Source: Acidimicrobiales bacterium (GTDB taxonomy: Bacteria > Actinomycetota > Acidimicrobiia > Acidimicrobiales > DASWMK01). Taken from it: DNA of 62,279 bases. Both the position numbers and the translations under genes were made by a program. This document shows, piece after piece, positions 3,414 to 44,735 of the stretch (the stretch's first letter is position 1; each line of letters opens with the position of its first letter). Location of the stretch: NCBI GenBank assembly GCA_036399815.1, contig DASWMK010000043.1:1-62279 (forward strand), given 5' to 3'. The notes beneath the pieces were generated by a model. It was not told the origin of the DNA and ran no database searches. It saw only the letters and a program-made list of their open reading frames with translations.

Positions 3414-5006
3414 GTGCCCATATACGGTCAGCGGACCGATCAGGCGACGGAGCCCGTCGCCCATCGGAGCTTCGAGCTCCATGCGGAGCGCGCGCCGAAA
3501 CGGCTCGCGGTCACCTGCGGGGAACGGGCCTTCACCTACGGTCAGTTGAACGAGCGGGCCAACCAGCTCGCCCACTTCCTCGTCGCCAACGGCGTCGGTC
3601 CCGGGTCGGTCGTCGGCGTCTGCCTCGACCGCTCCCCCGAGCTCGTCGCCAGCATCCTCGGCATCCTGAAGGCGGGCGCGGCCTACTCCCCGCTCGACAC
3701 GACGTACCCGGACGAGCGGCTGGCGCTGATGACCGCCCAGCTCGACACGATGGAGTGGGTCGTCGCCTCGACGCGGACCCGGTCCCTCGTCGACCGGGCC
3801 GAGGCGCAGGTCCTCGACGTCGACGCCGTGGCGCCCGGCCTGGCGACGTTCCCGACGACCAACCCGCAGCGCCGGGTCACCGGCGACGACCTCTGCTACG
3901 TCGTGTTCACGTCCGGGTCGACGGGGCCGCCCAAGGCGACCGCCGTGCGCCACGCCGGCTGGCACAACCTGCTCAGCTGGCTGCGGGCCGACTTCGGCCT
4001 CGACGACTGGTCGAGCAACCTCCACATCAGCTCGATGGGCTTCGACATCAGCCAGCGCAGCCTCATGACGCCGCTGTTCACCGGCGCCACGCTCCACCTG
4101 CTGCCCAGCCGCAACTTCGACGCCATGCTGGCCAACCGGCTGGTCGCCCGGCTCGGGATCCGGACCCTGCACTGCGCGCCGAGCGCCCTCTACCTGATGA
4201 TGGAGCGCGAGGCGTCCCACGACACGGGCGCGCTCGACACCGTCCAGTACGTGTTCGTCGGCGGCGAGCCGCTCTCGGCCCGCCGGGTGCGGGACTGGCC
4301 GAACCGGCCGGAGCGCCAGGGCAGGCTCGTGAACGTCTACGGCGTGGCCGAGTGCAGCGACGTGTCGACGTTCCACGTGCTCGAGGACTTCGCCGGCTAC
4401 ACCGAGACCGGCGTGCCCATCGGCCGCCCGATCCACAACACCGACATCCACCTCCTCGACGAGGACCTGCAGCCCGTCGCCCACGGCGACGTCGGCGAGA
4501 TCTGCATCGCCGGGGCGGGGGTCGGCGCCGGCTACCTCAACGCCGAGGCGCTGACCCGCACCCGCTTCGTGCCGGCGCCGGCCGTCGGCGTCGAGCGCCT
4601 CTACCGCACGGGCGACCTGGGCCGGCTCCGCCCCGACGGCGCCATCGCCTGCATCGGCCGGGTCGACGACCAGGTGAAGGTGCGCGGGATGCGCATCGAC
4701 CTCGGCGACGTCGAGACCACCCTGCGCCGCAGCGAGCGCATCCACGACGCCGTCGTCGTCGCCGTCAAGGACGAGCAGGGCGAGACCGACCTGGTCGCCC
4801 ACGTCATCCTGTCGGCCACCTACGACGGCGAGTCCGACGAGCCGGCCCTGCGGGCCGAGGCCGCCGCCCTGCTCCCCCGGCACATGGTCCCCCGCTCCTT
4901 CGTCGTGGTCGACCGCTTCCCGCTCACCCCGAACGGCAAGGTCGACCGCGCCGCCCTGTCCCGCACGCCCGCCACCCGGGCCCCGATCGGCGCCTCCGCG
5001 TCGTGA
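3414..5006 (+). CDS. stand-alone NRPS-type adenylation enzyme (amino acid adenylation domain, no carrier domain)
   Basis: 530 aa. A-domain core motifs FTYGQL, LKAGAAYSPLD, FTSGSTGPPKA, FDIS, NVYGVAE, YRTGDL, GRVDDQVKVRG, PNGKVDR. The ORF ends about 20 aa after A10. Confidence 0.9.
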   Translation: MPIYGQRTDQATEPVAHRSFELHAERAPKRLAVTCGERAFTYGQLNERANQLAHFLVANGVGPGSVVGVCLDRSPELVASILGILKAGAAYSPLDTTYPDERLALMTAQLDTMEWVVASTRTRSLVDRAEAQVLDVDAVAPGLATFPTTNPQRRVTGDDLCYVVFTSGSTGPPKATAVRHAGWHNLLSWLRADFGLDDWSSNLHISSMGFDISQRSLMTPLFTGATLHLLPSRNFDAMLANRLVARLGIRTLHCAPSALYLMMEREASHDTGALDTVQYVFVGGEPLSARRVRDWPNRPERQGRLVNVYGVAECSDVSTFHVLEDFAGYTETGVPIGRPIHNTDIHLLDEDLQPVAHGDVGEICIAGAGVGAGYLNAEALTRTRFVPAPAVGVERLYRTGDLGRLRPDGAIACIGRVDDQVKVRGMRIDLGDVETTLRRSERIHDAVVVAVKDEQGETDLVAHVILSATYDGESDEPALRAEAAALLPRHMVPRSFVVVDRFPLTPNGKVDRAALSRTPATRAPIGASAS

Positions 5007-5050
5007 CGGCCGCCCGACCGACGACCACCACCTCAGGAATCGAGGACGAG

Positions 5051-6007
5051 ATGACCGACGCTGCCCAGCTGCCCGCACCCACGCCCCACGTCGCCCGCGA
5101 CGCCGTCGTCGACGACGACATCCGCGACGACATCGCCCGGTTCGAGGCCGACGGCTTCCTGGGGCCGATCAAGCTCTACGAGCCGGACGAGGCGACGGAG
5201 ATGATCCGCGAGATCCGGGTGCAGAACCAGCGGCGGGAGAACGCGCTCTACCACAACAGCGTCAACTACGACCGCCACTTCGACATCTCGCTGCTGTCCC
5301 GCCACGTCTGCCACCCGACCATCGCCCGGTACCTCCAGGGCATCCTCGGGCCCGACGTGCTCCTGTGGCGCACCGAGTTCTTCCCGAAGTTCCCGGGCTC
5401 GGAGGGCACGGAGTGGCACCAGGTGCGGGACTACAGCTACGCTAACGGCAACCCGCAGCTGCTGCCCACCGAGACCGAGTGGAACGCGTTCATCGACATC
5501 ACGGTGTGGACGACGTTCACGCCGGCGACGCTCGAGACCGGCTGCATGCGGTTCATGCGCGGGTCGCACAAGCACTGGTACTTCGACGAGCGCAAGGCGA
5601 CGGCGAGGGGCCGCACCGGCGAGTACGACGTCAACGAGGTCGACACCCAGTTCTTCGGCTACGAGTTCTCGGACTTCAAGATCGACCCGTCCTGGGTGCC
5701 GCCGGACGAGGACGTCGTCAACCTCGTGATGGAGCCGGGCGAGGCCGTGATCTTCACCGCCAACTGCGTCCACGGCTCGCTCCCCAACCGCACCGAGCGC
5801 CAGACCCGGTTCGCCATCGCCGGGCGGTACGTGCCGACCCACGTCCGCGTCTACCCGGAGCAGGACTGGTTCACGGCCCACGGCGCCCGCTTCGACCTGA
5901 GCAACTACGGGAGCGTGCTGGTCGCCGGCCGCAACGACTACGACCACAACCGGATCAGGACCCACAACAACCTCGGCGAGCCGTTCACCACGAACTTCCC
6001 GCGCTGA
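5051..6007 (+). CDS. SyrB2/CmaB-like non-heme Fe(II)/2-oxoglutarate enzyme (carrier-protein-dependent halogenase type) with His-x-Val
   Basis: 318 aa. [48 protein letters not shown] and CVHGS align along the whole length with my recollection of SyrB2. The AGGA/GAGGA SD is present. Only the 3' third of track ORF 3353..6007 is real. Confidence 0.85.
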   Translation: [318 protein letters not shown]

Positions 6008-6094
6008 GCGGCGCGGCCCGCCCCGACGATCGAGAGCGGTGACGGCCGCCGCCCGCCAGCCGGCGCGGCGGCCCCGCTCGGAAAGGACCCCGAC

Positions 6095-6319
6095 ATGGTG
6101 GCCGACACCATCCGCAGCATCTGGCGCAAGGAGCTCGACCTCGGCGAGTTCTCCGACGACGACGACTTCTTCGACCTGGGCGGCCACTCGCTGGTGATGG
6201 CGAGGATCCAGACCCGCATCAGCGAGGAGCTCGGCGTCGAGGTGCCGATGGACGACCTGTTCCGGCACTCGACCGTCGCCGGCATCTCGGGCTACCTCGA
6301 GCACGCGGCGGCGAAGTAG
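6095..6319 (+). CDS. free-standing peptidyl/aminoacyl carrier protein
   Basis: 74 aa. Phosphopantetheine site FFDLGGHSLVMARI. GGAAAGGA SD upstream. Confidence 0.85.
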   Translation: MVADTIRSIWRKELDLGEFSDDDDFFDLGGHSLVMARIQTRISEELGVEVPMDDLFRHSTVAGISGYLEHAAAK

Positions 6320-6349
6320 CCGGCGCGGCGAGCCGAGGCGGCGACGGGG

Positions 6350-7615
6350 ATGGCGCTGCTGTCGCTCTGCGGAGCGAAGATGACGAGCCCGTCGGGGCTC
6401 CGGGCGATCATGCAGGACGTCGCCACGACGATCACCGACCCGCTCGACCGTGAGTGGCTCAACCTGAGCATCGGCAACCCGGCGGCGATCCCCGAGGTGA
6501 TCGCCATGTGGCGGCGGCTGACGGCCGACGCGCTGGCCTCGAAGTTCGAGGCGGTCAGCTGCCAGTACGGGCCGTCGCGGGGGGCCGAGGCGCTCCTCGA
6601 CGCCATCGTCCGCTACTTCGACGACCGCTACCGGTGGGGGCTGCTCCCCGACAACGTCGTCGTCGGGCCGGGCAGCCAGATGCTCTGCTTCGTCGCGGCC
6701 GCGCTGTACGCGGGGCCGAGCGACGCCGGCCTGCGCCGCATCGTGCTGCCCGTCGTGCCCGACTACACCGGCTACCAGGGCGTGTGCATGCACGCCGGCG
6801 GCATCGTCGGCGTCCCGCCGAGGATCGAGACCGACGGCGACCGCGGCTTCCGCTACGTCGTCGACCTCGACGCGCTCGAGCGGGTCGAGGACGTCGGCAT
6901 GTTCCTGCTGTCGACGCCGAGCAACCCGACGGGCCGGGCGGCCGACCCCGAGGAGCTCGACGCCATCGTCCGCATCGCCGAGGCGAGGGGCGTGCCCGTC
7001 GTCGTCGACAACGCCTACGGCGAGCCGTTCCCGCAGGTGGCGGCCACGCCGTCCCCGCCCGTGTGGCACCCCAACGTCATCAACCTGTTCACGATGTCGA
7101 AGGCGGGGATGCCGGGCGAGCGGATCGGCTTCGCCGTGGGCGCGGCCGAGTACACGACGGCGATGACGTCGTTCATCGCCAACTCGGCCCTGCACGCGCC
7201 CCAGCTCTCCCAGATCGTGCTGGCCAACGCGCTCGCCTCGGGCGACCTGGACCACACGGTCGGGTCCGTCATCACGCCGTACTACGCGAGCAAGCGCCGG
7301 ACGGCCGAGAAGCTGCTCGCCGAGCGGCTGCCGGAGTGGGTGGACTGGCGGCTGCACACGAGCGACGGCGGCATGTTCTGCTGGCTGTGGTTCGACCACG
7401 ACTGGTTCGACGACGCCGACTTCTACCGGCGGATGAAGGCCCGCAAGGTGTTCGTCGTCCCCGGCCGGCACTTCTTCGTCGACCCCGCCTCGGTCGGCCC
7501 GCACGGCACCCACTGCATCCGCATCAGCCTGAGCTCGGACGAGGCGATCCTCGCCGAGGGCATCGACCGGATGGCCGACGAGCTGGAGGAGCTGGGTCGT
7601 GGCGCTGGCCGTTGA
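6350..7615 (+). CDS. PLP-dependent class-I aminotransferase (valine-pyruvate/AvtA-like)
   Basis: 421 aa. Contains LSIGNPA, STPSNPTGR, NAYGEPFP and the SKAGMPGERIGF Lys motif. The start may be a few codons downstream. Confidence 0.85.
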   Translation: MALLSLCGAKMTSPSGLRAIMQDVATTITDPLDREWLNLSIGNPAAIPEVIAMWRRLTADALASKFEAVSCQYGPSRGAEALLDAIVRYFDDRYRWGLLPDNVVVGPGSQMLCFVAAALYAGPSDAGLRRIVLPVVPDYTGYQGVCMHAGGIVGVPPRIETDGDRGFRYVVDLDALERVEDVGMFLLSTPSNPTGRAADPEELDAIVRIAEARGVPVVVDNAYGEPFPQVAATPSPPVWHPNVINLFTMSKAGMPGERIGFAVGAAEYTTAMTSFIANSALHAPQLSQIVLANALASGDLDHTVGSVITPYYASKRRTAEKLLAERLPEWVDWRLHTSDGGMFCWLWFDHDWFDDADFYRRMKARKVFVVPGRHFFVDPASVGPHGTHCIRISLSSDEAILAEGIDRMADELEELGRGAGR

Positions 7616-8453
7616 CACCGTCCGGTCGGGCGGGACGGCGCTGACGGTCGGCTCGACGGCGGTCGACCCGGGCCGGCCGAGCCTGCTGTTCGTCAACGCC
7701 GTCGGCATGGAGGCGCCCCTGCTCGACGGGGTGGCCGCGCACGTCGAGGACGCCGGCCTCAACTTCCTCACCTGGGAGCTGCGGGGCAGTCCCGGGCCGG
7801 CCGACACCGGCGGTCCCGGCGACTTCTCGGTCGAGGCCCACGCCGCCGACGGGGTCGCCGTGCTCGACGCCTTCGGCGTGGACGACGCGGTCGTCGCCGG
7901 CTGGTGCACCGGCGCCACGATCGGGCTGTTCCTGGCGGCCGAGCTCGGCCCCCGGGCGACGGCGTTCGCGTCGATCGACGGCGCCTTCCTCTTCGAGGGC
8001 GCGCCCGGCGGGTCGGTCGGGAACTCCGTCTACGCGATGTGCGCGGCGATCGACGCCGACGAGGCGCTCGCCCCCGAGTACCATCACCTGCTCACCCTGC
8101 GGGGCGGCGACACGACGATCCCCGGGCTCGACGCCGACCCGGCGCTGATCCGCCGGCTCACCGCGCCCTACCGGACGGGCGACGGCCTGCTGCGGTTCGC
8201 GCGCGCCACCCGGGGCGCCTGCGCCTACGACCCCGCCGCCGTGCTCGCCACGCTCGCCTGCCCCACCTGGTTCGCGGCGCGCGTCGACGACACGATGGTC
8301 TCCTACCGCAAGAGCGAGACGGCCGCGGGCCTGGCCAGGGACGCCCGCCTGGTCGTCTACCCGTCGGGCGGCCACTGGGCCCTGTTCACCGAGCGACAGG
8401 TGCTCGACGACCTCACCGCCTTCGCGACCTCGGTGGTGGGCGCCCGCCGGTGA
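7599..8453 (+). CDS. alpha/beta-hydrolase-fold protein with Cys nucleophile (SyrC/CmaE-like aminoacyl transferase candidate)
   Basis: 284 aa. The nucleophile elbow is VAGWCTGATIG (Cys codon 7905-7907), with a later Asp (RVDDTMV) and His (SGGHWALF). It overlaps the aminotransferase by 17 nt. Confidence 0.75.
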   Translation: MALAVDTVRSGGTALTVGSTAVDPGRPSLLFVNAVGMEAPLLDGVAAHVEDAGLNFLTWELRGSPGPADTGGPGDFSVEAHAADGVAVLDAFGVDDAVVAGWCTGATIGLFLAAELGPRATAFASIDGAFLFEGAPGGSVGNSVYAMCAAIDADEALAPEYHHLLTLRGGDTTIPGLDADPALIRRLTAPYRTGDGLLRFARATRGACAYDPAAVLATLACPTWFAARVDDTMVSYRKSETAAGLARDARLVVYPSGGHWALFTERQVLDDLTAFATSVVGARR

Positions 8454-9376
8454 GCGCGCTCGGCATCCTCAGGCCACCGGCCCGGGCCGCCGGGCACGTC
8501 TACCTGGGCAACGTGGCCGCCACCGCCATGCTCAGCGGGATCTTCGTGTTCGGCGCCCGCAGCGTCCGCACGTCGGCGCCCGTCGAGGTCGCCGCCCAGC
8601 GCTTCACCCTGGCGACGCTCGTGTTCGGCCTGCTCTTCGTCGCCCGGGTCATCCGCCCGGTGCGCATCCGGCGGGCGTCGACCGGCGTCTACCTGCTGAT
8701 CGCCTCGTCGGCGGGGGTGTTCCTCTACAACGTCCTGTTCTTCGCCGGGCTCGACCTGTCGCTGGCGTCGAGCGGCGGGTTGATCATCGCCACCATCCCG
8801 GTGTGGACGTCGCTGCTCGAGTCGGCCGTCCTCGGCACCCGCCTGACCCTCCGCAAGGTGGTCGGCTCGCTCGTGTCGTTCAGCGGCGTCGCCTACCTGT
8901 TCCTCGCCTCGCTCGACTCCTCGGCCGGCCTGCTCGACTCGGACAACCTCGTCGGCGACCTCCTCTTCCTCGCCGCCGCCGTGTGCTGGGCCGTCTACTC
9001 GATCGCCATGAAGAAGGTGGTCGCCGAGGTCGAGCCCCGGGTGGCGACGGCCTACTCGGTCGGGATCGGGTCGGTGCTGCTCGTCGTCTGGAGCTTCCTC
9101 AGCAACGGCCACTCGCCCCTCAATGGCGAGATGCTCCACATCCCGATCATCTACATGGCGACGTTCGGCACGGTGTTCGCGCTGATGCTGTGGTTCCACA
9201 GCATCCAGGAGATCGGGCCGACCCGGACGAGCGTGTTCCTGAACCTCGTACCCGTCTATACCGTCGTGCTGGCCGCGGTGTTCTTGGACGAGTCGCTCGG
9301 ATTGTCCGTGCTCGTGGCGCTGTGCATCATCATCGCCGGCGTCCTCGTCGTGCAGACCGACCCGGCCCGCGCCTGA
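8450..9376 (+). CDS. EamA/DMT-family transporter
   Basis: About 308 aa and about 10 hydrophobic helices in two repeats. The GTG at 8450 overlaps the upstream TGA (GTGA). The 5' part of track ORF 7904..9376 is out of frame with the real gene. Confidence 0.8.
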   Translation: MSALGILRPPARAAGHVYLGNVAATAMLSGIFVFGARSVRTSAPVEVAAQRFTLATLVFGLLFVARVIRPVRIRRASTGVYLLIASSAGVFLYNVLFFAGLDLSLASSGGLIIATIPVWTSLLESAVLGTRLTLRKVVGSLVSFSGVAYLFLASLDSSAGLLDSDNLVGDLLFLAAAVCWAVYSIAMKKVVAEVEPRVATAYSVGIGSVLLVVWSFLSNGHSPLNGEMLHIPIIYMATFGTVFALMLWFHSIQEIGPTRTSVFLNLVPVYTVVLAAVFLDESLGLSVLVALCIIIAGVLVVQTDPARA

Positions 9377-9429
9377 CGCACTATGACCGGCGAAGGGGCC
9401 GGTGTGAACGGCGAGGTAGGGTCGTGACA

Positions 9430-10866
9430 ATGACCAAGATCACCTGTCTGGACGACGTCGACGACTCGCCGGCCAGCGTGGCGACGACCCGGCGGTGCCG
9501 CGTCGTGGCCGGGTTCCTCGCCCGCACGGACGGGCGGGAGATCGTCGAGCCGGCCGAGGCCGACCTCGCCACCGTCGTCGCCGCCCTGGCCGACCGGGGC
9601 GTGCTGCACTTCCGGCCGACCGGGGAGCCGGGGGTGGTCGCCGTCGACCACGTGCCGTCCGAGGCGGTCGTCCGCACGGCCACGGACGGGCTGAAGGAGT
9701 GGCCGTCGTCGGTCGCCAACCGCATGGCCAAGTCGGCGCGGCGGTCGGCCGGCGCGCTGTTCACGTTCCCGGACGAGTTGGGCGACGACGCCATCGAGGT
9801 GTTCATCACGGACTGGAGCCCGTGCCCCGGCGCGTGCGCCGTCGCCGTCCACCACGGCCACCCGTACGTCCGCGGGCGGGTGCCGTGGGACGACCGGCCC
9901 TCCTGGTTCACCGGCCTCTACGTGCGCCACCCGCTCACCGGCGACCTGCTCCCCGTGTGGGTGGCGGACTGGGTGAAGCCGGACTTCGGCACCGGCGCCG
10001 TCCTCGTCAACCCGGCCCACGACGCGGTCGACCTCGAGTTCGGCCGGTCGGTGGGCATGCCCATCCGGTTCGCGCTGATGCCGACGGGCGCGTCGGACAG
10101 CCCGGAGTCCTGGCCGGCACCACCGGTCATCAAGCAGGGCACGGCGATCAAGACGGGCCGGTGGGACGGCATGAACGTCGCCGACGCCCGCACCGCCTAC
10201 CGGGAGACGCTCGGCGAGCGGGGCCTGGCCAAGGACCACACCGACGTCCGCCTCCCCGGCTACCGCATCGGCACGCTCACCATGGACGACGCCGGGCCCT
10301 GGCGGTGGACGCCCGAGGACGGCCGGCTGGCGCCCGCGGGCGACGGCGACGGCGGCGGGCGGCGGGCCCGGCTGGAGCCGGCGCCGGTGCTGGCCGCGGC
10401 GGCCGCCGTGGTCGGCGGGGCGGAGGTCGTGATGATGGGGGCGACGGCGGTGAAGTCGGCCGCTCCCCTGCTCGTCACCCTGCTGAAGGACGGCGGGGTC
10501 GAGCGCATGCCCGCCGTGCAGGTCACCCAGACGGCGGACTACGGCGGGTCGCGCGAGTACGACGACGCGCTGCGCCTCGCCTACCTCGTCGCCGGCGACC
10601 CGAACCAGCCGGCGACGGTCAAGGAGGCCCTGCTCGAGCAGACCGAGCGGTTCCTCGCGGGGCTCGGCGAGATGAAGGAGCGGCTGGCGGAGGTGGGCGA
10701 GGCGCCCCCCAAGGGCGTCGCCTCGGCGCTCGACCGGGGCGACCCGGTCGCCCTGTTCCGCGAGCTGTACCGGTGGCAGAAGGACACGCTCAAGTCGGGC
10801 AAGCCCGTCGAGGAGCGGTCGTACCGGGCAGCGGTCAGCGCGCTGCTCGGCGACACCGGCTTCTGA
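9430..10866 (+). CDS. degenerate, shortened leucyl-tRNA-synthetase paralogue retaining the CP1 editing region (pseudo-synthetase)
   Basis: 478 aa. VFITDWSPCPGACAVAVHHGHPYV, HPLTGDLLPVWVADWVKPDFGTGAVLVNPAHDAVDLEFGRSVGMPI, and YDDALRLAYLVAGDPNQPATVKEALLEQTERFL parallel E. coli LeuRS segments (TTRPDT...AAGHPL; HPLTGEEIPVW...GTGAVMAVPGHDQRD; GADTVRLFMMF...ANRFL). No HIGH or KMSKS is visible. Very high GC3. Confidence 0.65.
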   Translation: MTKITCLDDVDDSPASVATTRRCRVVAGFLARTDGREIVEPAEADLATVVAALADRGVLHFRPTGEPGVVAVDHVPSEAVVRTATDGLKEWPSSVANRMAKSARRSAGALFTFPDELGDDAIEVFITDWSPCPGACAVAVHHGHPYVRGRVPWDDRPSWFTGLYVRHPLTGDLLPVWVADWVKPDFGTGAVLVNPAHDAVDLEFGRSVGMPIRFALMPTGASDSPESWPAPPVIKQGTAIKTGRWDGMNVADARTAYRETLGERGLAKDHTDVRLPGYRIGTLTMDDAGPWRWTPEDGRLAPAGDGDGGGRRARLEPAPVLAAAAAVVGGAEVVMMGATAVKSAAPLLVTLLKDGGVERMPAVQVTQTADYGGSREYDDALRLAYLVAGDPNQPATVKEALLEQTERFLAGLGEMKERLAEVGEAPPKGVASALDRGDPVALFRELYRWQKDTLKSGKPVEERSYRAAVSALLGDTGF

Positions 10867-10939
10867 CAAGGAAATCCCTGGCGGCGGGGCGCCCTCCACC
10901 CGTGTGGGCGCCCGATCCACGGCGAGTAGGTTGGCGATC

Positions 10940-13267
10940 ATGGCGCGCAGGATCGAGGTCGAGCTCACGAGCGAGCGCGACGACAACACGTGGACCTGGC
11001 GCGCCGCCGGCGCCCGCCAGCCGAAGGGCGTCCTCGACGGCTCGATCCTGTACCCGGGGGCGAAGGTCGGCGACGTCGTGCGGGCCGAGGCGGAGTTCGA
11101 CGTCGACGGGATCACCGTCGTCTCCGTGGTGCCGCCCAAGGAGGACCGCAAGGGGCCCGAGCGGCTGGAGCTGATCTCCTCTGGCCGGGACTTCGAGCCG
11201 GTCACCACCACGTTGGCGCCCCGGGGCCGCGGCGACCGCGACCGGCGGCGCGAGCGGCGCGACGGCGACCGCGACGGCCGGCCCGGGCGTCCCGGCGACC
11301 GCGACGCCGACCGGCGGCCGCGGGGCGACCGGCCCCACCGCCCGGGCGGCGACCGCCCGGGGGGCGAGCGGGGCCCCGGCGGCGACCGGCGGGAGCGGGG
11401 GGATCGCGGTGATCGCGCCGACCGCGGCGACCGAGCCGACCGCGGGGCCAGGCCGGACCGGCCGGGACGGGGCGCGGGTGCGCCGGTCGGCGCCGGCGAG
11501 CGTGGTCCGGGTGAGCGGCGGGGCCGCCCGCCGGGTGGCGAGCGCCGCCCCCGGCCGGAGCGCCCGGCGCCCGAGCCGAAGCCCAAGCCCAAGCGCCTGC
11601 GGGCCGGCCGCACGCACCGCAACGCCGTGCTGGCCGACCTGCCGCCCGAGCAGCGGCCGGTCGCCGAGCAGCTGCTGAGCGGCGGCATCCCGGCGGTCCG
11701 CCAGGCCCTCGAGCGCCAGAACGAGCAGCTGCGGTCGGAGGGCAAGCCGGAGGTCAAGGCCGACGCGCTGCTGGCCATGGCCGAGGAGCTGCACCCGCGG
11801 CTTCGGTCGGCCGAGTGGCGGGACCGGGCCGAGGCGGCGCTCGCCGAGGTGGACGAGGTCGACCTGCGGGACCTGCGGTCGGTGGTCGTCGCCGCCGACG
11901 ACGCGGCCCGGGACGAGGAGAGCCGGGAGCTGGCCTCCCGCCTGCGGGACTCGCTCAACACGAGGGTGGACCGGGAGCACGCCGAGTGGCAGGCCGAGCT
12001 GGCCGCCACCCTGGCCGACGGCCGGATCGTGCGGGCGCTGCGCCTGAGCAGCCGGCCGCCCAAGGCCGGTGTGCCGCTCCCCCCCGAGGTCGTCGCCCAG
12101 CTCACCGAGCAGGCGAACGCGGCGCTGACCGCCGAGGTCAGCCAGGACCGGTGGGCGGCGGTGCTCGACGCCATCGCCTACTCACCGGTGCGGCGGACGG
12201 TCGAGCCCGCCGGCGTGCCGCCCGAGCCGGGCGCCGAGCTGCTCGCCGCCGTGCGGAAGATCGCCGACCGGGTGCCCCAGATCGCCAGCCGGTTCGGGAT
12301 CGAGGCGCCGGCCCGCCCGGCCCGTCCCACCCGCCCGGGCCGGCCGCCCCAGCGCCCCGCCGGCGGACCCGGCCAGCCCCGCCGCCGCCCGCCGGGCAGC
12401 AACGGCGACACCCCCCGCCCCGCTCCCCCGGCCCGGGCCAACGGCGAGTCCGCCGGCGGCCCGCCCAGGACCCCGGCGCCCACGTCCGGCCCCGGCGCTC
12501 CGCCCGAGACGACCGACGCACCCGCAGACGCGTCGACCGAGACCGCCGACGCACCCGCCGACGCCGCGCCCGCGACCGCAGACGCGCCGCCCGAGAAGAC
12601 CGACGCATCCGCAGACGCGTCGCCGGAGACCGCCGACGCGCCCCTCGAGACCGCGCCGGCTGCGGCGTCGGCGGCTCCGGCCGCCGAGTCCGCCGGGTCG
12701 CCGTCCCCGGGTTCGGGCGAGCCCGCCGACACGACGGCCGCCGGGTCGGAGGGTGCGACCCCGGAGACCGACGGCGCACCGAGCGGGGGTGAGGCTCACA
12801 CCGCCGACGCGCCGGACGCCGCCGATGCCCGATGGGTTCAGGGCGCCGACGCAGCGCTCGGCGACGCCGCCGAGCCCGGTCCTCGGGCGGGCGACGCGAT
12901 GGACACCGGGTCGGCTCCGACCGGCCCGACGCCGGCTGCGGAGACCGCCGAGGCACCCGCCGCGGAGCCGGATCCGGCGTCGGCCGAGTCCGCCGACGCC
13001 CCGGCCGCAGGGTCGGCACCGGGCGCCCATCCGTCGGACGCCAGCACGGCCGCGACCGCCGACGCGCCGGTCGCGGAGTCCGCACCGAAGGCGGACCGGA
13101 CCGGCGAGCCGGCGGCCGCGGGGGCGGCGACGGCGTCGGCCGGGTCCGGCGACGCGCCGGCCGACGGGGGCGATCCCGCCGGCGCTGCCGCGTCGTCCGA
13201 GAGCGCCGGTGAGGCGAGCCCGCGCGGCGAGCCGGCGGACGGCGGGGACGAGCGGGGCGAGGGGTAG
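10940..13267 (+). CDS. conserved actinobacterial protein with R/G/D-rich and A/P/T/D-rich low-complexity regions
   Basis: 775 aa from ATG 10940. A folded N-terminus (MARRIEVELTSERDDNTWTWRAAG...) is followed by an RGDR-rich tract, a helical central domain, and a long acidic Ala/Pro/Thr tail with (E/K)T(A/T)DA(P/S)ADA repeats. Confidence 0.6.
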   Translation: MARRIEVELTSERDDNTWTWRAAGARQPKGVLDGSILYPGAKVGDVVRAEAEFDVDGITVVSVVPPKEDRKGPERLELISSGRDFEPVTTTLAPRGRGDRDRRRERRDGDRDGRPGRPGDRDADRRPRGDRPHRPGGDRPGGERGPGGDRRERGDRGDRADRGDRADRGARPDRPGRGAGAPVGAGERGPGERRGRPPGGERRPRPERPAPEPKPKPKRLRAGRTHRNAVLADLPPEQRPVAEQLLSGGIPAVRQALERQNEQLRSEGKPEVKADALLAMAEELHPRLRSAEWRDRAEAALAEVDEVDLRDLRSVVVAADDAARDEESRELASRLRDSLNTRVDREHAEWQAELAATLADGRIVRALRLSSRPPKAGVPLPPEVVAQLTEQANAALTAEVSQDRWAAVLDAIAYSPVRRTVEPAGVPPEPGAELLAAVRKIADRVPQIASRFGIEAPARPARPTRPGRPPQRPAGGPGQPRRRPPGSNGDTPRPAPPARANGESAGGPPRTPAPTSGPGAPPETTDAPADASTETADAPADAAPATADAPPEKTDASADASPETADAPLETAPAAASAAPAAESAGSPSPGSGEPADTTAAGSEGATPETDGAPSGGEAHTADAPDAADARWVQGADAALGDAAEPGPRAGDAMDTGSAPTGPTPAAETAEAPAAEPDPASAESADAPAAGSAPGAHPSDASTAATADAPVAESAPKADRTGEPAAAGAATASAGSGDAPADGGDPAGAAASSESAGEASPRGEPADGGDERGEG

Positions 13268-15517: not shown

Positions 15518-15961
15518 CTACGGCGCGGTGTGGACGACGAGCACGTCGCAGGGCGCGTGGTGGGACACGGCGCCGGCGACGCTGCCGAGGAGGAAGCGGG
15601 TGGCCGGGGTGCCGAGCCCCTTCGAGCCGACGACGACGAGGTCGGCGTCGAACTCCTCGGCGGTGGCGACGATCACGTCGGCCGGGTCGCCGGGCTCGGC
15701 CCGCACGACCACGTCGGCGACCCCGAGCTCGGCGGCGAGCGCCCGGGCCCTCCTCGCCTCGGCCTCGGCCGTCGCCCGGTCGCCGACCATCCAACGGAGG
15801 TCCTCGGGGGCCACCTCGCCGTCGCCGTCGCCGTGCGGGTGGTAGGCGGTGACGGCGACCAGGCGGGCGCCGGCCCGGGCGGCCAGCTCGCCGGCGTGGC
15901 GGACGGCCTCCTCGGCCGTGGACGAGCCGTCGGTCCCGACGACGACCGTTCGGTAGGTCAC
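15518..15961 (-). CDS. universal stress protein (UspA family)
   Basis: 147 aa. Contains VVVGTDGSSTAEEAV and the nucleotide-binding VGSKGLGTPATRFLLGSVAGAVSHHAPCDVLVV. The GTG at 15961 overlaps the cyclase stop (GTGA). Confidence 0.85.
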   Translation of the reverse strand: MTYRTVVVGTDGSSTAEEAVRHAGELAARAGARLVAVTAYHPHGDGDGEVAPEDLRWMVGDRATAEAEARRARALAAELGVADVVVRAEPGDPADVIVATAEEFDADLVVVGSKGLGTPATRFLLGSVAGAVSHHAPCDVLVVHTAP

Positions 15962-18900
15962 GGTGCTCCCTTCGCCATCGACCGGGCGCCTCCCTGTTCG
16001 GACGCGGCGGCGACCGCGGCCGACAGCGCGGCCGCCGCGAGGTCGCGGGTCTCGGCGCTCTCCTCGGAGCCGTCCGCCGCCTCGGCGGCGAGGGCGAGCG
16101 CCCTGGCGCCGTCGCCGCCGTCCGCCTCCAGCAGGGCGAGCGCAGCGGCCGCGTGGCGCCACGCCGTCGTCGCCGGGCCGTCGCCCCGCAGCCCGACCGC
16201 CTCCTCGAGCAGGAGGCGGGCGTCGTCGGTCCCCTCCCCCACCGCCCGGGCCAGCGCGACGAGCGCCCGGACCTCGCTCTCCCGCTCCCCGCCACCGCCC
16301 CGCACGACGGCGAGCGCCGCCCTCGCCGCCCTGGCCGCCTCGTCCCGCTCGCCGGCGTCGGCCGCCACGGCGGCGATCTCGGCCAGGAGCCTCGCCTCCT
16401 CGGCGGCCGCCCCGACCCGCCTGGCCCGGTCGAGCCCGGCCGCCAGCCACCGCCGGGCCTCGGCCCGGTCGCCGGCCGCCCGGGCCACCGTCCCCTTGAG
16501 CCGCAGGGCGGCGGCCTCGCCCCACGGGTCGCCCAGCTCGGCGAACAGCCGGTCGGCGTCGTCGGCCCGTTGGCGGGCCTCGGCGAGGTCGCCGGCCTCG
16601 GCCGCGCTGGCGGCCAGCAGCAGCGAGCAGATCCCCTCGGCCCACGGGTCGCCCTGGGAGCGGGCCTGGGCCCGCAGGCTGGCGCCGATGTCGGCGGCCT
16701 GCGCCACCCGGCCCTCCTGGAGCAGGGTGAACCCGAGGATGGCGAGGCACCAGCCGATGCCGGCCGGGTCGCCCCGCTCGGCGAAGCGGCCGGCCGCCCG
16801 CCACAGGTGGCCCCTCGCGGCGGGCACCGAGCCGAGCTGGAACTCGCACCACCCGAGGGACTGGAGGGTCTCGGCCGTCTCCTCGCCGGCCGATCGCTCG
16901 AGGTCGAGGGCCCGGAGCAGCCGGGGCAGGGCGAACCGGGACCGGCCGGCCAGCACCTCGACCCAGCCCTGGAGGCGCAGGGTGGCGGCCTCGCCGAGCG
17001 GGTCGCCGATGGCCCGCCACCGGGCTTGGGCGTCCTCGAAGCGGGACCGGCTGCGGCCGACGTCGCCCCGCAGACGGTCGACGGCCCCGAGGCGGGCGAT
17101 GGCCTCGGCCGTCATCGGCCCGCCGTCGCCGTCCCTGGCCAGCACCTCCTCGAAGGCCGCTGCGGCGGCGTCGAGGCGGCGCAGCCCGACGAGCACGACG
17201 CCGTGCTCGAGCGCCACCCTGGCCGGGTGGGGGGCGTCGCGGCCGGCGGGCAGGGCGCCGAGGTCGCGCGCCCGCTGGTACCAGCCGTCCGCGTCCCGGA
17301 GGGCGTCCCTGGCGTGGGCGTCCCTGGCCGCCCGCACGAGGTGGTCGACGGCGGTGGCGGCCAACCCGTGGTCGGTGTGGCCGAGCTGGAGGTCGAGGGC
17401 GACGGCCCGCTCGTAGTGGTGGGCGACGAGGCCGAGCACCGCCGCCTCGCCCTCCGGCCCCCACCGGTTCCGGAGCCAGGCGGCCACCCTGGCGTGCTTG
17501 CGGGCCCGCTCGCCGAGGGGGACGGCCGCGTAGGCCACCTCGCTTGTGAGCCCGTGGCGGAAGGCGAGGTCGCCGGCCGGGTCGTCGGCGGCGTGAGGCT
17601 CGATGACGCCCCTCGTGACGAGGGCGTCGACCGTGCCGTCGACGTCGGCGTGGTCGTCGAGGGCGGCGACCGCCTCCCGCCAGAACGACCGGCCGACGAT
17701 CGCCGCGTCCTGGAGGAACCGGCGCTGGTGGAGGGGCAGGGCGTCGAGGCGGGCGCCGATCAGGGAGCGGACGCCGTCGGGCAAGCCGACGGTGGCGAGG
17801 TTGGTCGCCGCCAGCCACCGGCCACCCACCTCGGTGATGGCGCCGGTCTCCGACAGCCACCGCACGAGCTCCTCGAGCAGCAGCGGGTTGCCGCCGCCGG
17901 CGTCGAGGAGGCGGCGCTCGGCGGCGGGGCCGATGGCGCCCACCCCGGCCGGGTCGCCGGGCCCGGCGAGCAGGCCGTGGAGGAGGCGGGCGGCGGCCTC
18001 CCGGTCGAGCGGGGCGAGGGCGAGGGCGGGGCCGGGCCAGTCGGCGGCCGCCGGCAGCTCCCTGGCCAGGGCGACGGCCAGCAGCGGGCGGCCCGGCCCC
18101 CGGCCGGCCAGCTGGCGGAGGAGCCCGAGGACGGCGTCGTCGGCCCACTGGAGGTCGTCGAACACGACGAGCACGGGCCGGGTGGCGGCCAGCCCCTCGA
18201 GCACGATGCGGACGGCGCCCACCAGCTCGTCGGCCACCCTGGCCCGCGCCGGGAGCCCGCCGTCGGCCGCGCCCCGGCCCGGCTCGGCGAGGCCGAGAAG
18301 CTGGGCGATCCGCGCCGTCAGGACGGCGACGTCGGCGCCCACGGCCGCCGCCACCGGCCCGAGCCCCTCGGCCAGGCGGTGGTGCTGGGCCGGGCGCGGG
18401 TCGCCGGTCTCGACCCCGAACGCCGAGCGGACGAGGTCGGCCAGCGGGTCGAGCGCGCCGGCCCCGCCGTAGGGGTCGCAGCCGGCCCACAGCAGCTCGC
18501 ACTCGGGGCGCGACCGCCACAGGGTGATGGCGAGCTCGAGGGCGAGGCGGGTCTTGCCGAGCCCGGCCTCGCCGGTGACGGCGACGACGCCGGCCCGGCC
18601 CTCGGCGAAGGCCCGCTCGGCCTCGGCCGCCAGCACGGCCAGCTCGTCGTCCCGGCCGACGAGCGGCGCGCCGAGCCCGAGCGCGCCCCGGCCCGGGCCC
18701 CGGCGGGTGCCGACCGCGGCCCAGGCCCGCACCGGGGCCGACTTGCCCCGCAGGTGGTACGCGGGCCTCGCCTCGTAGGCGATGGCGTCGACGGTGGCCG
18801 CCCAGGTCCGCTCGCCCACCAGCACCTCGCCCGGCCGGGCCACCGACACCAGGCGGTGGGCCGTGTTCACGGTGTCGCCGGTGACCGTGTAGGCGCCGCC

Positions 18901-19347
18901 CGGCCCGACCGGCCCGGCCAGCACCTCGCCGGTGTTGATCCCGACCCGCAGGACGAGCCCCGGCCCGGGCGCCTCGAGGGCGGCGGCGAGGCCGAGCGCC
19001 GACCGCACGGCCCGCTCGGCGTCGTCCTCGTGGGCCACCGGCGCGCCGAACACGGCCATCAGCTCGTCGCCGATGATCTTGTCCACGTGGCCGCCGTGGC
19101 CCTCGACCACGGGGACGAGCGCGCCGAAGCACCGGTCCAGCAGCTCTTTGACGGCCTCCGGGTCGCGGCCCTCGGCCAGGGTGGTGAACCCGGCGAGGTC
19201 GGCGAACACGACCGTCACCACGCGGCGCTCCTCGACGGCGGCCCCGAGCGACGGCGCCGCCGCCGCCACGGCCGTGCCGCAGGCCGGGCAGAAGCGGGCG
19301 CCGTCCGGGAGCACCGACGAGCAGGACGGGCAGCGCACGCCCGTCAC
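15958..19347 (-). CDS. zinc-ribbon / class III adenylate(guanylate) cyclase / P-loop ATPase / TPR multidomain protein
   Basis: 1129 aa. Zinc ribbon CPSCSSVLPDGARFCPACG. Cyclase motifs VVFADLAGFT, IGDELMAVFG, INTGEV, GDTVNTAHRL. Walker A VTGEAGLGKTRLA. Long Ala/Leu/Arg-rich TPR-like C-terminus. Confidence 0.85.
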   Translation of the reverse strand: MTGVRCPSCSSVLPDGARFCPACGTAVAAAAPSLGAAVEERRVVTVVFADLAGFTTLAEGRDPEAVKELLDRCFGALVPVVEGHGGHVDKIIGDELMAVFGAPVAHEDDAERAVRSALGLAAALEAPGPGLVLRVGINTGEVLAGPVGPGGAYTVTGDTVNTAHRLVSVARPGEVLVGERTWAATVDAIAYEARPAYHLRGKSAPVRAWAAVGTRRGPGRGALGLGAPLVGRDDELAVLAAEAERAFAEGRAGVVAVTGEAGLGKTRLALELAITLWRSRPECELLWAGCDPYGGAGALDPLADLVRSAFGVETGDPRPAQHHRLAEGLGPVAAAVGADVAVLTARIAQLLGLAEPGRGAADGGLPARARVADELVGAVRIVLEGLAATRPVLVVFDDLQWADDAVLGLLRQLAGRGPGRPLLAVALARELPAAADWPGPALALAPLDREAAARLLHGLLAGPGDPAGVGAIGPAAERRLLDAGGGNPLLLEELVRWLSETGAITEVGGRWLAATNLATVGLPDGVRSLIGARLDALPLHQRRFLQDAAIVGRSFWREAVAALDDHADVDGTVDALVTRGVIEPHAADDPAGDLAFRHGLTSEVAYAAVPLGERARKHARVAAWLRNRWGPEGEAAVLGLVAHHYERAVALDLQLGHTDHGLAATAVDHLVRAARDAHARDALRDADGWYQRARDLGALPAGRDAPHPARVALEHGVVLVGLRRLDAAAAAFEEVLARDGDGGPMTAEAIARLGAVDRLRGDVGRSRSRFEDAQARWRAIGDPLGEAATLRLQGWVEVLAGRSRFALPRLLRALDLERSAGEETAETLQSLGWCEFQLGSVPAARGHLWRAAGRFAERGDPAGIGWCLAILGFTLLQEGRVAQAADIGASLRAQARSQGDPWAEGICSLLLAASAAEAGDLAEARQRADDADRLFAELGDPWGEAAALRLKGTVARAAGDRAEARRWLAAGLDRARRVGAAAEEARLLAEIAAVAADAGERDEAARAARAALAVVRGGGGERESEVRALVALARAVGEGTDDARLLLEEAVGLRGDGPATTAWRHAAAALALLEADGGDGARALALAAEAADGSEESAETRDLAAAALSAAVAAASEQGGARSMAKGAP

Positions 19348-20034: not shown

Positions 20035-20679
20035 TCAGTCGTCCGAGGAGGGCTGGCCCTCGCCGCCCGCCGCCTGGGCGGCGACGCTGTCGAGGGGGGC
20101 CTGGAGGACCTTCACGTCGTAGACCATCCACGACCCACCGGAGCGCTGGAGCCCGAGGTCGAGGCGGAGCTCGTCGGCCTGGGGGGCGGGGAAGCGGTTG
20201 TTGGCGATGGTCTGGTCGACGACCGCGAACACCCGGCCCCGGTCGCCGGTGAAGTCCTGCACGTAGAGCGAGCGGATCTCGCCCCGGCTGGCCGCCTGCA
20301 CCTCCTTCAGGGCCGCCCGCACGTCGGACCCGAAGAAGCGGTCGGCCTCGGCGGCGAAGTCGCCGGTGGCGTAGCCCACGATGGCGTCGAAGTCCCGGTC
20401 GACGGTGGCCCCGTCGAAGTTCGTGAGGGCGACGAGGAAGTCGCGCGCCGTGCTGGCCATGCCGGCCCGGGCGGCGTCGTCGGCGCGCTCGCCGTTCCAG
20501 GCCCAGGCGAACCCGGCCGTGCCGACCAGGCCGAGGGCGGCCACGACGGCCAGCAGCGGCACCAGCAGGCGGCGCCGCCCGGGCCCGGACGGCGGGGCGA
20601 CGGCCGGCTCGGCGTCGTCGCGATCGGGGTCGACGGTGGGCTCGGGGTCGGCGGTGCGGTGGCGGACGGCGGCGGTCAC
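20035..20679 (-). CDS. Mce-associated membrane protein (Mas-like)
   Basis: 214 aa from GTG 20679 (GTGA overlap with the last mce gene). One TM helix, then a SnoaL-like domain (ARDFLVALTNFDGATVDRDFDAIVGYATGDF). Confidence 0.65.
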   Translation of the reverse strand: MTAAVRHRTADPEPTVDPDRDDAEPAVAPPSGPGRRRLLVPLLAVVAALGLVGTAGFAWAWNGERADDAARAGMASTARDFLVALTNFDGATVDRDFDAIVGYATGDFAAEADRFFGSDVRAALKEVQAASRGEIRSLYVQDFTGDRGRVFAVVDQTIANNRFPAPQADELRLDLGLQRSGGSWMVYDVKVLQAPLDSVAAQAAGGEGQPSSDD

Positions 20680-23026: not shown

Positions 23027-23027
23027 G

Positions 23028-28130: not shown

Positions 28131-28139
28131 CCCCGCCCC

Positions 28140-29012: not shown

Positions 29013-29800
29013 ACCTTCTGGGGGACGAAGTTGAAGTAGATGGTCGTGAGCACGTAGTTCACGAAGAACAGCAGGATGAACGTGATCACGACGGCCTGGT
29101 TGACGGCGTCGCCCACGCCCTTCGGGCCGCCCTTGACCGACATGCCCTTGTAGCAGGCGACCACGCCGGCGATGAACCCGAAGATGGCCGCCTTGGTGAG
29201 CGCCAGCCACAGGTCGGACAGCTGGCTGAGCTCGTTGAACGAGGCGAAGAAGCTCGACGAGGTCACGTCGTTCACCTGGGTGGCGAAGAACCACCCCCCG
29301 GTGAGGCCGGCGGCCGTGACGACGGCGTCGAGCAGGATGGCGAGGACGGTGGCGGCCAGGATGCGGGGCAGGACCAGCCGCTGGACCGGGTTGACGGCCA
29401 TGACCTCCATGGCCGAGATCTCGTCCCGGATGCGGCGGGCGCCGAGGTCGGCGCACATGGCCGACCCGCCGGCCCCGGCGATCAGCAGCGCCGTGGCGAT
29501 CGGCGCCTGCTCCCGGACGACGGCGAGCACGAGCGCCGACCCGGTGTGGGCCTCGGCCCCGAGCTGGCGGGTGAGGGCGCCGACCTGGAGGACGATGACG
29601 ATCCCGAACGGGATCGAGATGAGGATGACGGGGATGGTCGTCACCTTGGCGATGAACCAGCACTGGTCGACGAACTCGCCGACCGGCCAGGGACGGGAGA
29701 AGACCCGCCGCATGGCCTCCATGCCGAGGGCGGCCATGCTCCCGGTCTCCCGGAACAGGGTGGTCGCCTTGCCGACGAGCGGGATGCGGACGGCGGCCAT
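29009..29800 (-). CDS. YrbE/MlaE-family ABC permease (YrbEA-like)
   Basis: 263 aa. Contains VVREQAPIATALLIAGAGGSAMCADLGARRIRDEISAMEVMAV. Confidence 0.85.
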   Translation of the reverse strand: MAAVRIPLVGKATTLFRETGSMAALGMEAMRRVFSRPWPVGEFVDQCWFIAKVTTIPVILISIPFGIVIVLQVGALTRQLGAEAHTGSALVLAVVREQAPIATALLIAGAGGSAMCADLGARRIRDEISAMEVMAVNPVQRLVLPRILAATVLAILLDAVVTAAGLTGGWFFATQVNDVTSSSFFASFNELSQLSDLWLALTKAAIFGFIAGVVACYKGMSVKGGPKGVGDAVNQAVVITFILLFFVNYVLTTIYFNFVPQKV

Positions 29801-29849
29801 CAGCGGGCGCTCCCCGGGCGGCGGGCGGCAGTGACGGTCGGGCCGGCCA

Positions 29850-44725: not shown

Positions 44726-44735
44726 CGCGCCGATC

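Follow-up and report, generated by a model that had tools for sequence, protein, structure and literature searches.

A putative editing-only relative of leucyl-tRNA synthetase encoded in bacterial unusual-amino-acid gene clusters

An intact gene for a LeuRS-like protein

The 62,279-nucleotide contig DASWMK010000043.1 of an Acidimicrobiales bacterium (assembly GCA_036399815.1; the whole stretch is referred to as the window) carries on its + strand, at 9430-10866, an intact open reading frame (ORF), running from ATG to TGA, for a protein of 478 residues that resembles part of bacterial leucyl-tRNA synthetase (LeuRS) and that is here called LRSL. The GC content at third codon positions (GC3) of the gene is 0.99, in a window with a GC content of 72-80%, and a GAGG sequence is found 13 nt 5' of the start codon. 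An earlier note on this DNA, made from the sequence alone, had pointed to the intact 478-residue frame and the near-maximal GC3, as is indeed found, and had proposed a selected gene and not a decaying leuS fragment, a proposal that is borne out by these two properties together with the invariant, family-wide signature described below.

The sole Pfam domain of LRSL is PF13603 (LeuRS editing), which is matched over residues 159-258 (E 1.3e-19; 70.8 bits against a gathering cutoff of 25). The NCBIfam leuS model TIGR00396 yields 59.6 bits, far under its cutoff of 548.4, with an alignment restricted to residues 159-275, and this low score in combination with the PF13603 match implies that LRSL is related to LeuRS and is not LeuRS itself. 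A canonical leuS gene is absent from the window. On the basis of the sequence comparisons and structure models given below, we take LRSL to be a free-standing, editing-only paralogue of bacterial LeuRS with a miniaturised class Ia synthetase body, that is, a protein in which the hydrolytic pocket of the CP1 domain is predicted to be retained on a shrunken synthetase body and in which ATP-dependent amino-acid activation, for lack of both HIGH and KMSKS, is predicted to be lost.

The CP1 editing domain and its pocket

The CP1-type editing domain, with its flanking linker strands, spans residues 81-281 (9670-10272, + strand), as delimited by hhalign, by hmmsearch against the LeuRS entries of the PDB and by Pfam. 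It is clearly homologous to that of LeuRS (E ~1e-28 to 5e-30; E. coli and T. thermophilus structures, e.g. 4ARI and 1OBC) and the fold is co-linear: hmmsearch with a 21-member family profile aligned residues 74-274 with residues 195-419 of T. thermophilus LeuRS (E 1.4e-28), and hhalign against true LeuRS aligned residues 81-281 with LeuRS 206-434 (99.8% probability, E 4.9e-30). A gap of 23 columns follows residue 158 in the hhalign alignment, i.e. about 23 residues of the helical insert of LeuRS CP1 are missing in LRSL. The earlier note had listed three LeuRS-matching regions, namely the entry to CP1, the CP1 core and a segment after KMSKS. The first two hold, since both lie inside one contiguous alignment to LeuRS, the entry (VFITDWSP versus VYTTRPDT) being weak as a single-sequence match (9.0 bits). 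The third fails as a sequence match (-0.4 bits), yet it falls at a co-linear position (T. thermophilus LeuRS 654-734) and can be upheld at the level of the fold only. Profile searches, both against Pfam and profile to profile, thus establish the relationship to CP1 on which that note had made its reading depend.

Pocket residues are given in E. coli LeuRS numbering, which was derived from an ungapped alignment to the PDB chain with an assumed 20-residue tag and which reproduces the known positions of T252 and D345; conservation per residue was taken from a 21-sequence alignment and from a comparison across the context classes described below. The equivalent of the Thr-rich editing motif, VFITDWSPCPGA (9799-9834, + strand), aligns without gaps to a 12-residue segment of the E. 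coli chain and has been rewritten. Where LeuRS reads T247-T248-R-P-D-T252, LRSL reads I-T-D-W-S-P (TDW[ST][PSG] in the family), and T248 alone is retained. T247 corresponds to I126, which is not conserved in the family, and T248, R249 and P250 correspond to T127, D128 and W129, all of them invariant; D251 corresponds to S130, which is invariant in the 21-sequence alignment, and T252 to P131, a position at which the Thr is lost and Pro, Ser or Gly is found across the family. The alignment therewith confirms the replacement of TTRPDT by ITDWSP, with loss of the Leu-excluding Thr, that had been read from the sequence earlier.

The GTG loop and the HDxxD motif lie together in FGTGAVLVNPAHDAVD (9985-10032, + strand), a segment that aligns to E. 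coli LeuRS and is conserved across all context classes. Within it, F186 (Y330), N194 (V338), H197 (H341) and D201 (D345) are invariant, L192 (M336) is nearly so, and D198 (D342) varies between Asp, Asn and Ser. D345 is the universally conserved Asp that anchors the alpha-amino group of the substrate, and its equivalent D201 is kept; of the two HDxxD aspartates that the earlier note had described as retained, this second one is conserved in the family, and the first one, although present in LRSL, is not. In all, LRSL and LeuRS have the motifs HPLTGDLLPVWVA, GTGAV and H-x-x-x-D in common and share the equivalents of T248 and D345. They differ in the Thr-rich motif and at V338, and the loss of the T252 filter together with the invariant Asn at the V338 position suggests a pocket that may have been retuned to a larger or a polar side chain.

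A miniaturised synthetase body

LRSL has about 55% of the length of LeuRS, and CP1 is the one part that is recognisable by sequence: neither the comparison of the family profile with PDB LeuRS nor hhalign gave a significant sequence match to LeuRS for the N- and C-terminal parts. The N-terminal region (residues 1-80; 9430-9669, + strand), delimited by model secondary structure and Foldseek, is a beta-alpha-beta region that would represent a degenerate first Rossmann half, with strands at residues 3-7, 59-63 and 69-74 and helices at 14-33 and 43-55. The position of the HIGH helix is kept, with no conserved His there and with R22 and R32 nearly invariant; we infer the homology of this region to LeuRS solely from the co-linear Foldseek alignment. 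The C-terminal half (residues 282-478; 10273-10863, + strand) appears to consist of a degenerate second Rossmann half and a helical bundle like the anticodon-binding domain of class Ia synthetases, and carries a conserved FxxLYxxQK helix and no KMSKS. The protein stops at residue 478, after the helical bundle, which leaves no room for the C-terminal tRNA-binding domain of LeuRS.

The absence of HIGH and KMSKS, as claimed in the earlier note, extends to the family as a whole. A HIGH-like motif (H[ILMVAT]GH) is found neither in LRSL nor in any of 151 family members, versus 14 of 17 true LeuRS sequences, and a KMSKS-like motif is found in one of the 151 (P0001, a near-identical twin of LRSL), versus 16 of the 17. 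The stretch concerned, RMAKS at LRSL residues 98-102 (9721-9735), is a misplaced chance likeness: it lies before CP1, corresponds to the LeuRS segment 'MQRNWIGRS' and occurs in LRSL and its 98% identical twin only.

The AlphaFold model of LRSL (pLDDT 88, pTM 0.85) retrieves bacterial LeuRS structures as all of its top 49 Foldseek matches in the PDB (best E 4e-21, ~700 aligned columns). When residues 265-478 are modelled alone (pLDDT 91), the model matches only class Ia synthetases and MshC, namely CysRS (4e-5), LeuRS (M. mobile, 2.5e-4), MshC, IleRS, MetRS and ValRS, with E-values from 4e-5 to 3e-2; the fold evidence for the termini is modest (TM 0.4-0.5). The comparison to LeuRS by profile and by Foldseek that had been put forward as a check therefore supports a structural relationship, and the anatomy of LRSL, as judged from alignment and model, is that of a miniaturised LeuRS, in which an intact CP1 is joined to a helical bundle and to a split Rossmann fold that has degenerated.

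The LRSL family

LRSL has 242 matches in 5.8 billion proteins, of which the best 120 have lengths of 447-539 residues and PF13603 as their only precomputed Pfam domain. Among the matches listed, the names include 'class I tRNA ligase family protein', 'leucyl-tRNA synthetase' and 'hypothetical', and the nearest relatives are 98% and then 57% identical to LRSL, the others, from Streptomyces, Burkholderia, Pseudomonas, Marinobacter, Salinarimonas and metagenomes, being 35-45% identical. The family is rare: in an exhaustive profile search of 1.84 billion representatives, the threshold of E <= 1e-30 was passed by 79 proteins (~80 clusters when grouped at 50% identity), below which the scores fall to the level of true LeuRS (~114 bits or less). 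Family members occur in about 40 of 185,579 species genomes. Their signature is well defined, as TDW[ST] is present in 148 of the 151 members and GTGAVxxNP[AG]H in 137, and both are present in none of the 17 LeuRS sequences. Family members measure 450-620 residues, and no fusion to a carrier protein or a non-ribosomal peptide synthetase (NRPS) module was found among the best 150 representatives.

Actinomycetota, Pseudomonadota, Acidobacteriota and other groups have full-length homologues that hardly differ in size and are 35-57% identical, a distribution that is, by comparison of these sequences, the one expected of a selected and horizontally spread gene and not of a leuS remnant. Two loci stand apart. 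One of the two closest distinct homologues (55% identity; L001, a European Nucleotide Archive contig) lies alone among transposase genes, which fits mobility of the gene. In Streptomyces natalensis (L044, 10001-10243) we observed an 81-residue fragment of a family member (residues 158-238, 65% identity), probably a remnant.

The surrounding cassette and its flanks

The LRSL gene is the last of seven + strand genes with overlapping or close ends that together form a cassette (3414-10866). The first (3414-5006, + strand) encodes a free-standing NRPS adenylation enzyme of 530 residues (PF00501 and PF13193), whose PDB matches are NRPS adenylation domains, CytC1 included, and whose orthologues are linked to LRSL genes in Pseudomonas, Burkholderia and actinomycetes. 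The second (5003-6007, + strand) encodes a carrier-protein-dependent Fe(II)/2-oxoglutarate enzyme of 334 residues that resembles CytC3 (E 7e-72) and SyrB2 (E 4e-66). Its iron-site motif reads WHQV; the Val takes a position that is filled by Ala or Gly in halogenases and by Asp or Glu in hydroxylases. The longer motif WHQVRDYSY is invariant in 16 orthologues of the iron enzyme, and other clades with His-x-Val are common in metagenomes (WHQVANYQY, WHQVETYAV, WHQVERFQY); the motif was followed in the window (5003-6007) and in loci L005-L011, L014, L017, L027-L043 and L062-L139. We found no description of a His-x-Val iron site in a literature search, and a 2026 paper on metal coordination gives the Ala/Gly and Asp/Glu states only for this position (PMC13489965). 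The amino-acid-modifying cassette that the earlier note saw next to LRSL is therefore present, and the halogenation that its label as a halogenase cassette implies is unproven, because Val occupies the position of the halogenase Ala or Gly.

These two genes are followed by those for a stand-alone peptidyl carrier protein of 74 residues (6095-6319, + strand; recognised from the ORF and its sequence, with an LGGHSL phosphopantetheine site), which resembles the PF00550-annotated carrier proteins of related loci, and a class I/II aminotransferase of 421 residues (6350-7615, + strand; PF00155, E 2e-34), which is conserved as part of the cassette in actinomycetes as well as in L058. An alpha/beta-hydrolase of 284 residues (7599-8453, + strand; PF00561, E 1.4e-8), conserved beside the aminotransferase, is likely a thioesterase or an aminoacyl shuttle for the carrier protein. 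The gene directly upstream of LRSL (8450-9376, + strand) encodes an EamA-family (DMT) exporter (PF00892, E 8e-41).

The flanks (20676-30662 and 42858-55313, - strand) are core actinobacterial, with an mce operon, tatA/tatC, a DEAD/DSHCT helicase, pafB/C-like WYL regulators, two Pup-ligase family genes, proteasome alpha and beta subunits and a proteasomal ATPase. Because the rest of the window is of this kind, the seven-gene cassette appears to be a small island that was inserted in a conserved region.

Three further genes of the window deserve mention. Directly beyond the cassette, a 787-residue protein (10904-13267, + strand) combines a conserved-looking N-terminal region of ~90 residues with a long low-complexity sequence rich in Arg, Asp, Pro, Gly and Ala; it has no Pfam match and is not found beside the LRSL gene at other loci. 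A regulator-like protein of 1129 residues (15958-19347, - strand) unites a zinc ribbon, an adenylate/guanylate cyclase domain, an AAA ATPase and TPR repeats. A protein of 535 residues (32180-33787, - strand) shows two ThyX (Thy1) matches and may be a tandem or extended form, its length being what we take to be about twice that expected of ThyX.

Genomic context of LRSL genes in other organisms

The context of the family was derived from ORF and profile searches on fetched loci, many of which are incomplete; the divergent carrier proteins of the type II clusters (see below) were detected by iterated profile search. Of 49 distinct LRSL loci, ~37 encode an adenylation enzyme or a carrier protein and ~34 an EamA or LysE exporter. 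The co-occurrence of orthologues with the cassette, proposed earlier as a check, is therefore a real linkage. In the same vein, the earlier note held that a wide occurrence of the gene without the cassette would speak against its reading; this applies in part only, as most loci carry carrier-protein clusters and a minority has a regulator and an exporter only.

Four types of context can be distinguished. Type Ia, found in Pseudomonas, Burkholderia and metagenomes, comprises, in this order, DmpF, DmpG, adenylation enzyme, iron enzyme, carrier protein, LRSL, LysE, cupin, thioesterase, LysE, (zinc alcohol dehydrogenase) and AraC. Type Ib, found in actinomycetes including the window and in L058, has the order adenylation enzyme, iron enzyme, carrier protein, aminotransferase, hydrolase, (thioesterase), EamA or LysE, and LRSL, often with a LeuA- or HMGL-like gene close by. 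Type II, found in nine Streptomyces genomes and in Marinobacter, comprises asparagine-synthase-like, adenylation(-carrier), FAA-hydrolase-family and HMGL-like genes, a gene for a ~500-residue protein of no assigned function, EamA, short-chain dehydrogenase, carrier protein and LRSL. Type III consists of AraC, LRSL and EamA in a housekeeping neighbourhood where neither an adenylation enzyme nor a carrier protein is encoded within 8-10 kb, as seen in Salinarimonas (L057/L009), in L020, in a metagenome locus present in 12 contigs (L061) and in a low-GC genome (L028). An EamA or LysE gene adjoins the LRSL gene in types I, II and III. In type IV, found in Acidobacteriota and Lentzea, a gene for an uncharacterised protein of 311 residues is coupled to LRSL, sometimes with NRPS or other amino-acid-metabolism genes adjacent. 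A Kineosporiaceae genome (L016), grouped with type III, has AraC and an amino-acid permease near LRSL.

Three conserved partners (~311, ~500-516 and ~372 residues) recur beside the LRSL gene in different context types, and no Pfam match was found for those of ~311, ~372 and ~516 residues. The 311-residue partner, whose gene overlaps the LRSL start in L060 (8069-9004), is also found in L018, L034, L035 and L040, the ~500-residue partner in L056 (6352-7902) and L004 (5383-6858), and the ~372-residue partner in L057 (5945-7063). Within type Ia, Pseudomonas sp. FEN has two copies of the cluster in one genome (L010, L011), of which the second has a pseudogene-like adenylation gene, broken up into several reading frames, and an intact LRSL.

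The association was also approached from the other side, by fetching metagenome loci with the iron enzyme as query. In the closest iron-enzyme subfamily (EWHQVRDYSY), every locus with a complete type Ia layout (L077-L080) has LRSL, and so does L066. No LRSL gene lies within 10 kb in L069 (identical to L070), a close His-x-Val cluster, and the distant His-x-Val clades and canonical His-x-Ala enzymes have no LRSL neighbour, from which it follows that the link between LRSL and the iron enzyme is frequent and subfamily-specific and is not obligatory. The L069 cluster (6369-13142) holds LeuA-like (685 residues), aconitase-family and isopropylmalate-dehydrogenase-like genes, an aminotransferase, a thioesterase and the three core genes, with a GNAT acetyltransferase directly after the carrier protein, a gene set suggestive of a chain-elongated substrate akin to Leu or norvaline and of a different gene for self-protection. 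As N-acetylation by GNAT enzymes is known to detoxify amino-acid analogues, the acetyltransferase is possibly a non-orthologous replacement of LRSL.

Functional interpretation

Our preferred interpretation, to which we give an even chance, is that LRSL descends from LeuRS and deacylates aminoacyl-tRNA in trans, and that it and the exporter jointly guard the cell against a Leu- or norvaline-like amino acid from the cassette. The upstream operon would load an aliphatic Leu- or norvaline-like amino acid onto the carrier protein, where it would undergo modification before being set free as a non-proteinogenic amino acid. The product, or an intermediate, would be mischarged onto tRNA, most plausibly tRNA-Leu, and LRSL would hydrolyse the mischarged tRNA with a remodelled pocket, in which T252 is replaced, V338 has become Asn and R249-P250-D251 has become D-W-S. 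The adjacent EamA or LysE exporter would expel the freed amino acid, and in genomes that do not have the pathway LRSL and the exporter would form a resistance cassette controlled by an AraC regulator.

Several observations are in line with this proposal. With its CP1 homology, its GC3 of 0.99, a confident LeuRS-like model, unvarying equivalents of T248 and D345, an unvarying GTG loop and neither HIGH nor KMSKS, LRSL seems to have an editing-only architecture that is under selection. LRSL is linked to unusual-amino-acid pathways in distant phyla, and since these pathways feature keto-acid builders (DmpF/DmpG aldolase or LeuA-like synthase), aminotransferases and amino-acid exporters, a free amino-acid product is indicated, which the linked enzymes suggest may be aliphatic and chain-built. 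The type III cassettes, judged by their gene content, fit resistance and not biosynthesis and would imply a role of LRSL that is independent of carrier proteins, because only cellular substrates are left for LRSL where adenylation enzyme and carrier protein are both lacking. Release of the thioester is already taken care of by the thioesterase or alpha/beta-hydrolase of the clusters, and the possible substitution of LRSL by a GNAT enzyme in L069 points the same way. Moreover, stand-alone tRNA deacylases for host-made non-canonical amino acids are known to sit in gene clusters, usually with transporters or regulators, and both the cluster for 4-chlorothreonine, which is of the SyrB2 type, and that for coronamic acid are reported to contain putative AlaX deacylases (PMC13149037). 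The CP1 of LeuRS naturally clears norvaline and Ile, with norvaline as its main physiological target (PMC11295145 and work cited therein). Of the three roles that the earlier note had considered, namely a trans-editing factor against the pathway product, a binding or regulatory protein and a tRNA-dependent tailoring enzyme, comparative genomics, i.e. the exporter neighbours and the AraC/LRSL/EamA cassettes, would favour the first, in the sense of self-protection.

A number of points weigh against deacylation of tRNA. Binding of tRNA by LRSL is presumed, as we infer the function from comparative genomics and homology; the C-terminal tRNA-binding domain of LeuRS is gone, the invariant Asp at the R249 position could disfavour binding of the tRNA 3' end, and no tRNA gene is linked to LRSL, there being none in the window and merely sporadic matches at related loci. 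The pocket is near-identical across context types with different biosynthetic genes, which is unexpected if each protein edits the product of its own pathway. LRSL stands directly after the carrier-protein gene in types Ia and II. Finally, the specificity residues of the adenylation enzyme, which we take to be roughly D-I-R-H-F-G-V-D-V-K from an unvalidated reading by hand that carries no weight in the analysis, include Arg and Asp and may denote a substrate that is polar rather than Leu-like.

The position next to the carrier protein leads to the main alternative, that LRSL is a proofreading or release factor for this protein, with the CP1 pocket hydrolysing the (modified) aminoacyl thioester on the 74-residue carrier protein in the role of a type II thioesterase, a possibility that we regard as unlikely and yet worth weighing. 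A small carrier-protein gene lies immediately upstream of LRSL in the proteobacterial and type II clusters, adenylation enzyme or carrier protein is encoded near LRSL at the majority of loci (~37 of 49), LRSL is found beside NRPS modules in five loci (L018, L023, L025, L031, L040), and CP1 by its chemistry hydrolyses an alpha-aminoacyl ester that the conserved Asp holds in place. The CP1 fold would then have been repurposed for phosphopantetheinyl thioesters so as to proofread, unload or shuttle the aminoacyl group of the carrier protein, possibly to or from tRNA, and to this version, too, we assign a minor share of probability. Against it speak the AraC/LRSL/EamA cassettes, in which carrier protein and adenylation enzyme are missing within 8-10 kb, and the thioesterases or alpha/beta-hydrolases that the clusters already encode for thioester release. 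Likewise, the ~80 family clusters, all of 450-620 residues, show zero fusions to carrier proteins or NRPS modules, and LRSL has a LeuRS-like fold and not the PF00975-type alpha/beta-hydrolase fold. The CP1 site is, as seen in LeuRS structures, built round an adenosine ribose ester and not round a pantetheine thioester.

It is improbable that LRSL is non-catalytic, i.e. a binder, sensor or decoy that sequesters an amino acid or an aminoacyl-adenosine-like molecule or that aids the exporter or the regulator. Degenerate enzyme paralogues often turn into binding proteins, AraC regulators are frequent neighbours of LRSL and the first Asp of HDxxD varies; however, the residues for hydrolysis in LeuRS (the T248 and D345 equivalents, the GTG loop and His197) are invariant across phyla, a constraint that exceeds the needs of simple binding.

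Quite improbable, in our estimate, is the detoxification of a small aminoacyl ester or aminoacyl-adenylate-like toxin, whereby LRSL would cleave a free synthetase inhibitor of the nucleoside or nucleotide type instead of tRNA. LeuRS CP1 does bind post-transfer as well as pre-transfer (adenylate) analogues, according to the structure titles of 1obc and 1obh, and the regulator and exporter cassettes resemble resistance islands, whereas the linked clusters contain amino-acid pathways and no nucleoside or nucleotide biosynthetic genes.

A role as tRNA-dependent tailoring enzyme or shuttle, moving an aminoacyl group between tRNA and carrier protein or product (e.g. in dipeptide formation or tRNA charging), would combine the tRNA-synthetase scaffold with the carrier-protein neighbours, and loss of the T252 filter could admit Leu to the pocket. 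We nevertheless hold it to be very improbable, considering that the type III regulator/LRSL/exporter cassettes offer nothing to tailor, that a dedicated tRNA gene is not linked and that, to our knowledge, transferase chemistry in CP1 is without precedent.

That LRSL is a decaying leuS remnant or a mis-called ORF, as its roughly half LeuRS length and missing HIGH and KMSKS might suggest and as the earlier note had itself listed among the outcomes to be feared, has a negligible chance given the intact frame, the GC3 of 0.99, the confident compact model and the full-length homologues of constant size with their own invariant signature in several phyla; the family-wide conservation rules out a pseudogene.

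Relation to known systems and significance

LRSL is proposed, by analogy, to work most like the cluster-embedded deacylases described in 2026, i.e. the fluorothreonyl-tRNA deacylase, the deacylase of the canavanine cluster and BesG of the AlaX family (Millar et al., Nat Chem 2026, PMC13149037). Like these it is related to a synthetase editing domain, stands alone, is devoid of a working synthetic site and is placed in an unusual-amino-acid cluster beside a transporter and often a regulator. Unlike these, which derive from class II-type editing families, it derives from the class I CP1 and keeps the whole, miniaturised synthetase body; with CP1 as its only domain it belongs to none of the deacylase families of that paper (AlaX and two others), which makes no mention of LeuRS or CP1 (PMC13149037). 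The same job, hydrolysis of mischarged aminoacyl-tRNA in trans, is proposed for LRSL as is done by the trans-editing factors AlaXp, YbaK/ProXp of the INS superfamily, DTD/ATD and ThrRS-ed; a 2024 review distinguishes five such families or superfamilies, none of which is CP1-derived in its figure (PMC11295145).

The genes upstream of LRSL in the window follow the same logic as the CytC1-4, SyrB1/SyrB2 and CmaA-T cassettes, and the best PDB matches of the iron enzyme are CytC3 and SyrB2, from which it differs by His-x-Val in place of His-x-Ala/Gly. Those cassettes, which consist of an adenylation enzyme, a carrier protein, an Fe/2-oxoglutarate halogenase and a thioesterase, make free amino-acid antimetabolites or building blocks, and we know of no LeuRS-like gene in any of them. 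Synthetase-derived proteins have likewise been recruited to biosynthetic clusters in the case of resistant full-length copies such as the LeuRS AgnB2 (PDB 5AH5), which is among the structural matches of LRSL, and of the SerRS-like amino acid:carrier-protein ligases; in these the ATP site is still active and tRNA is charged or carrier proteins are loaded, whereas LRSL is without the activation motifs. In a literature search we found no characterised LeuRS-like or CP1 protein in biosynthetic clusters and no paper on the LRSL family. The concept of a cluster-embedded deacylase is hence already known, and the scaffold, the family and its clusters are undescribed in the literature that we found.

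If LRSL is indeed a tRNA deacylase, it would represent a new structural class: judging from the literature that we found, no earlier free-standing trans-editing factor goes back to the class I CP1. Cluster-embedded tRNA deacylases flag hidden unusual-amino-acid pathways (PMC13149037), and LRSL would in that case add a fourth deacylase family for genome mining. If, instead, it acts on the carrier protein, translation proofreading would be directly coupled to NRPS-type chemistry. The combination of TDW[ST] and GTGAVxxNP[AG]H marks at least two uncharacterised cluster types as well as a portable regulator/LRSL/exporter cassette, and the family draws attention to a conserved enzyme of the SyrB2 kind whose iron site, His-x-Val, is unusual and whose chemistry may be new.

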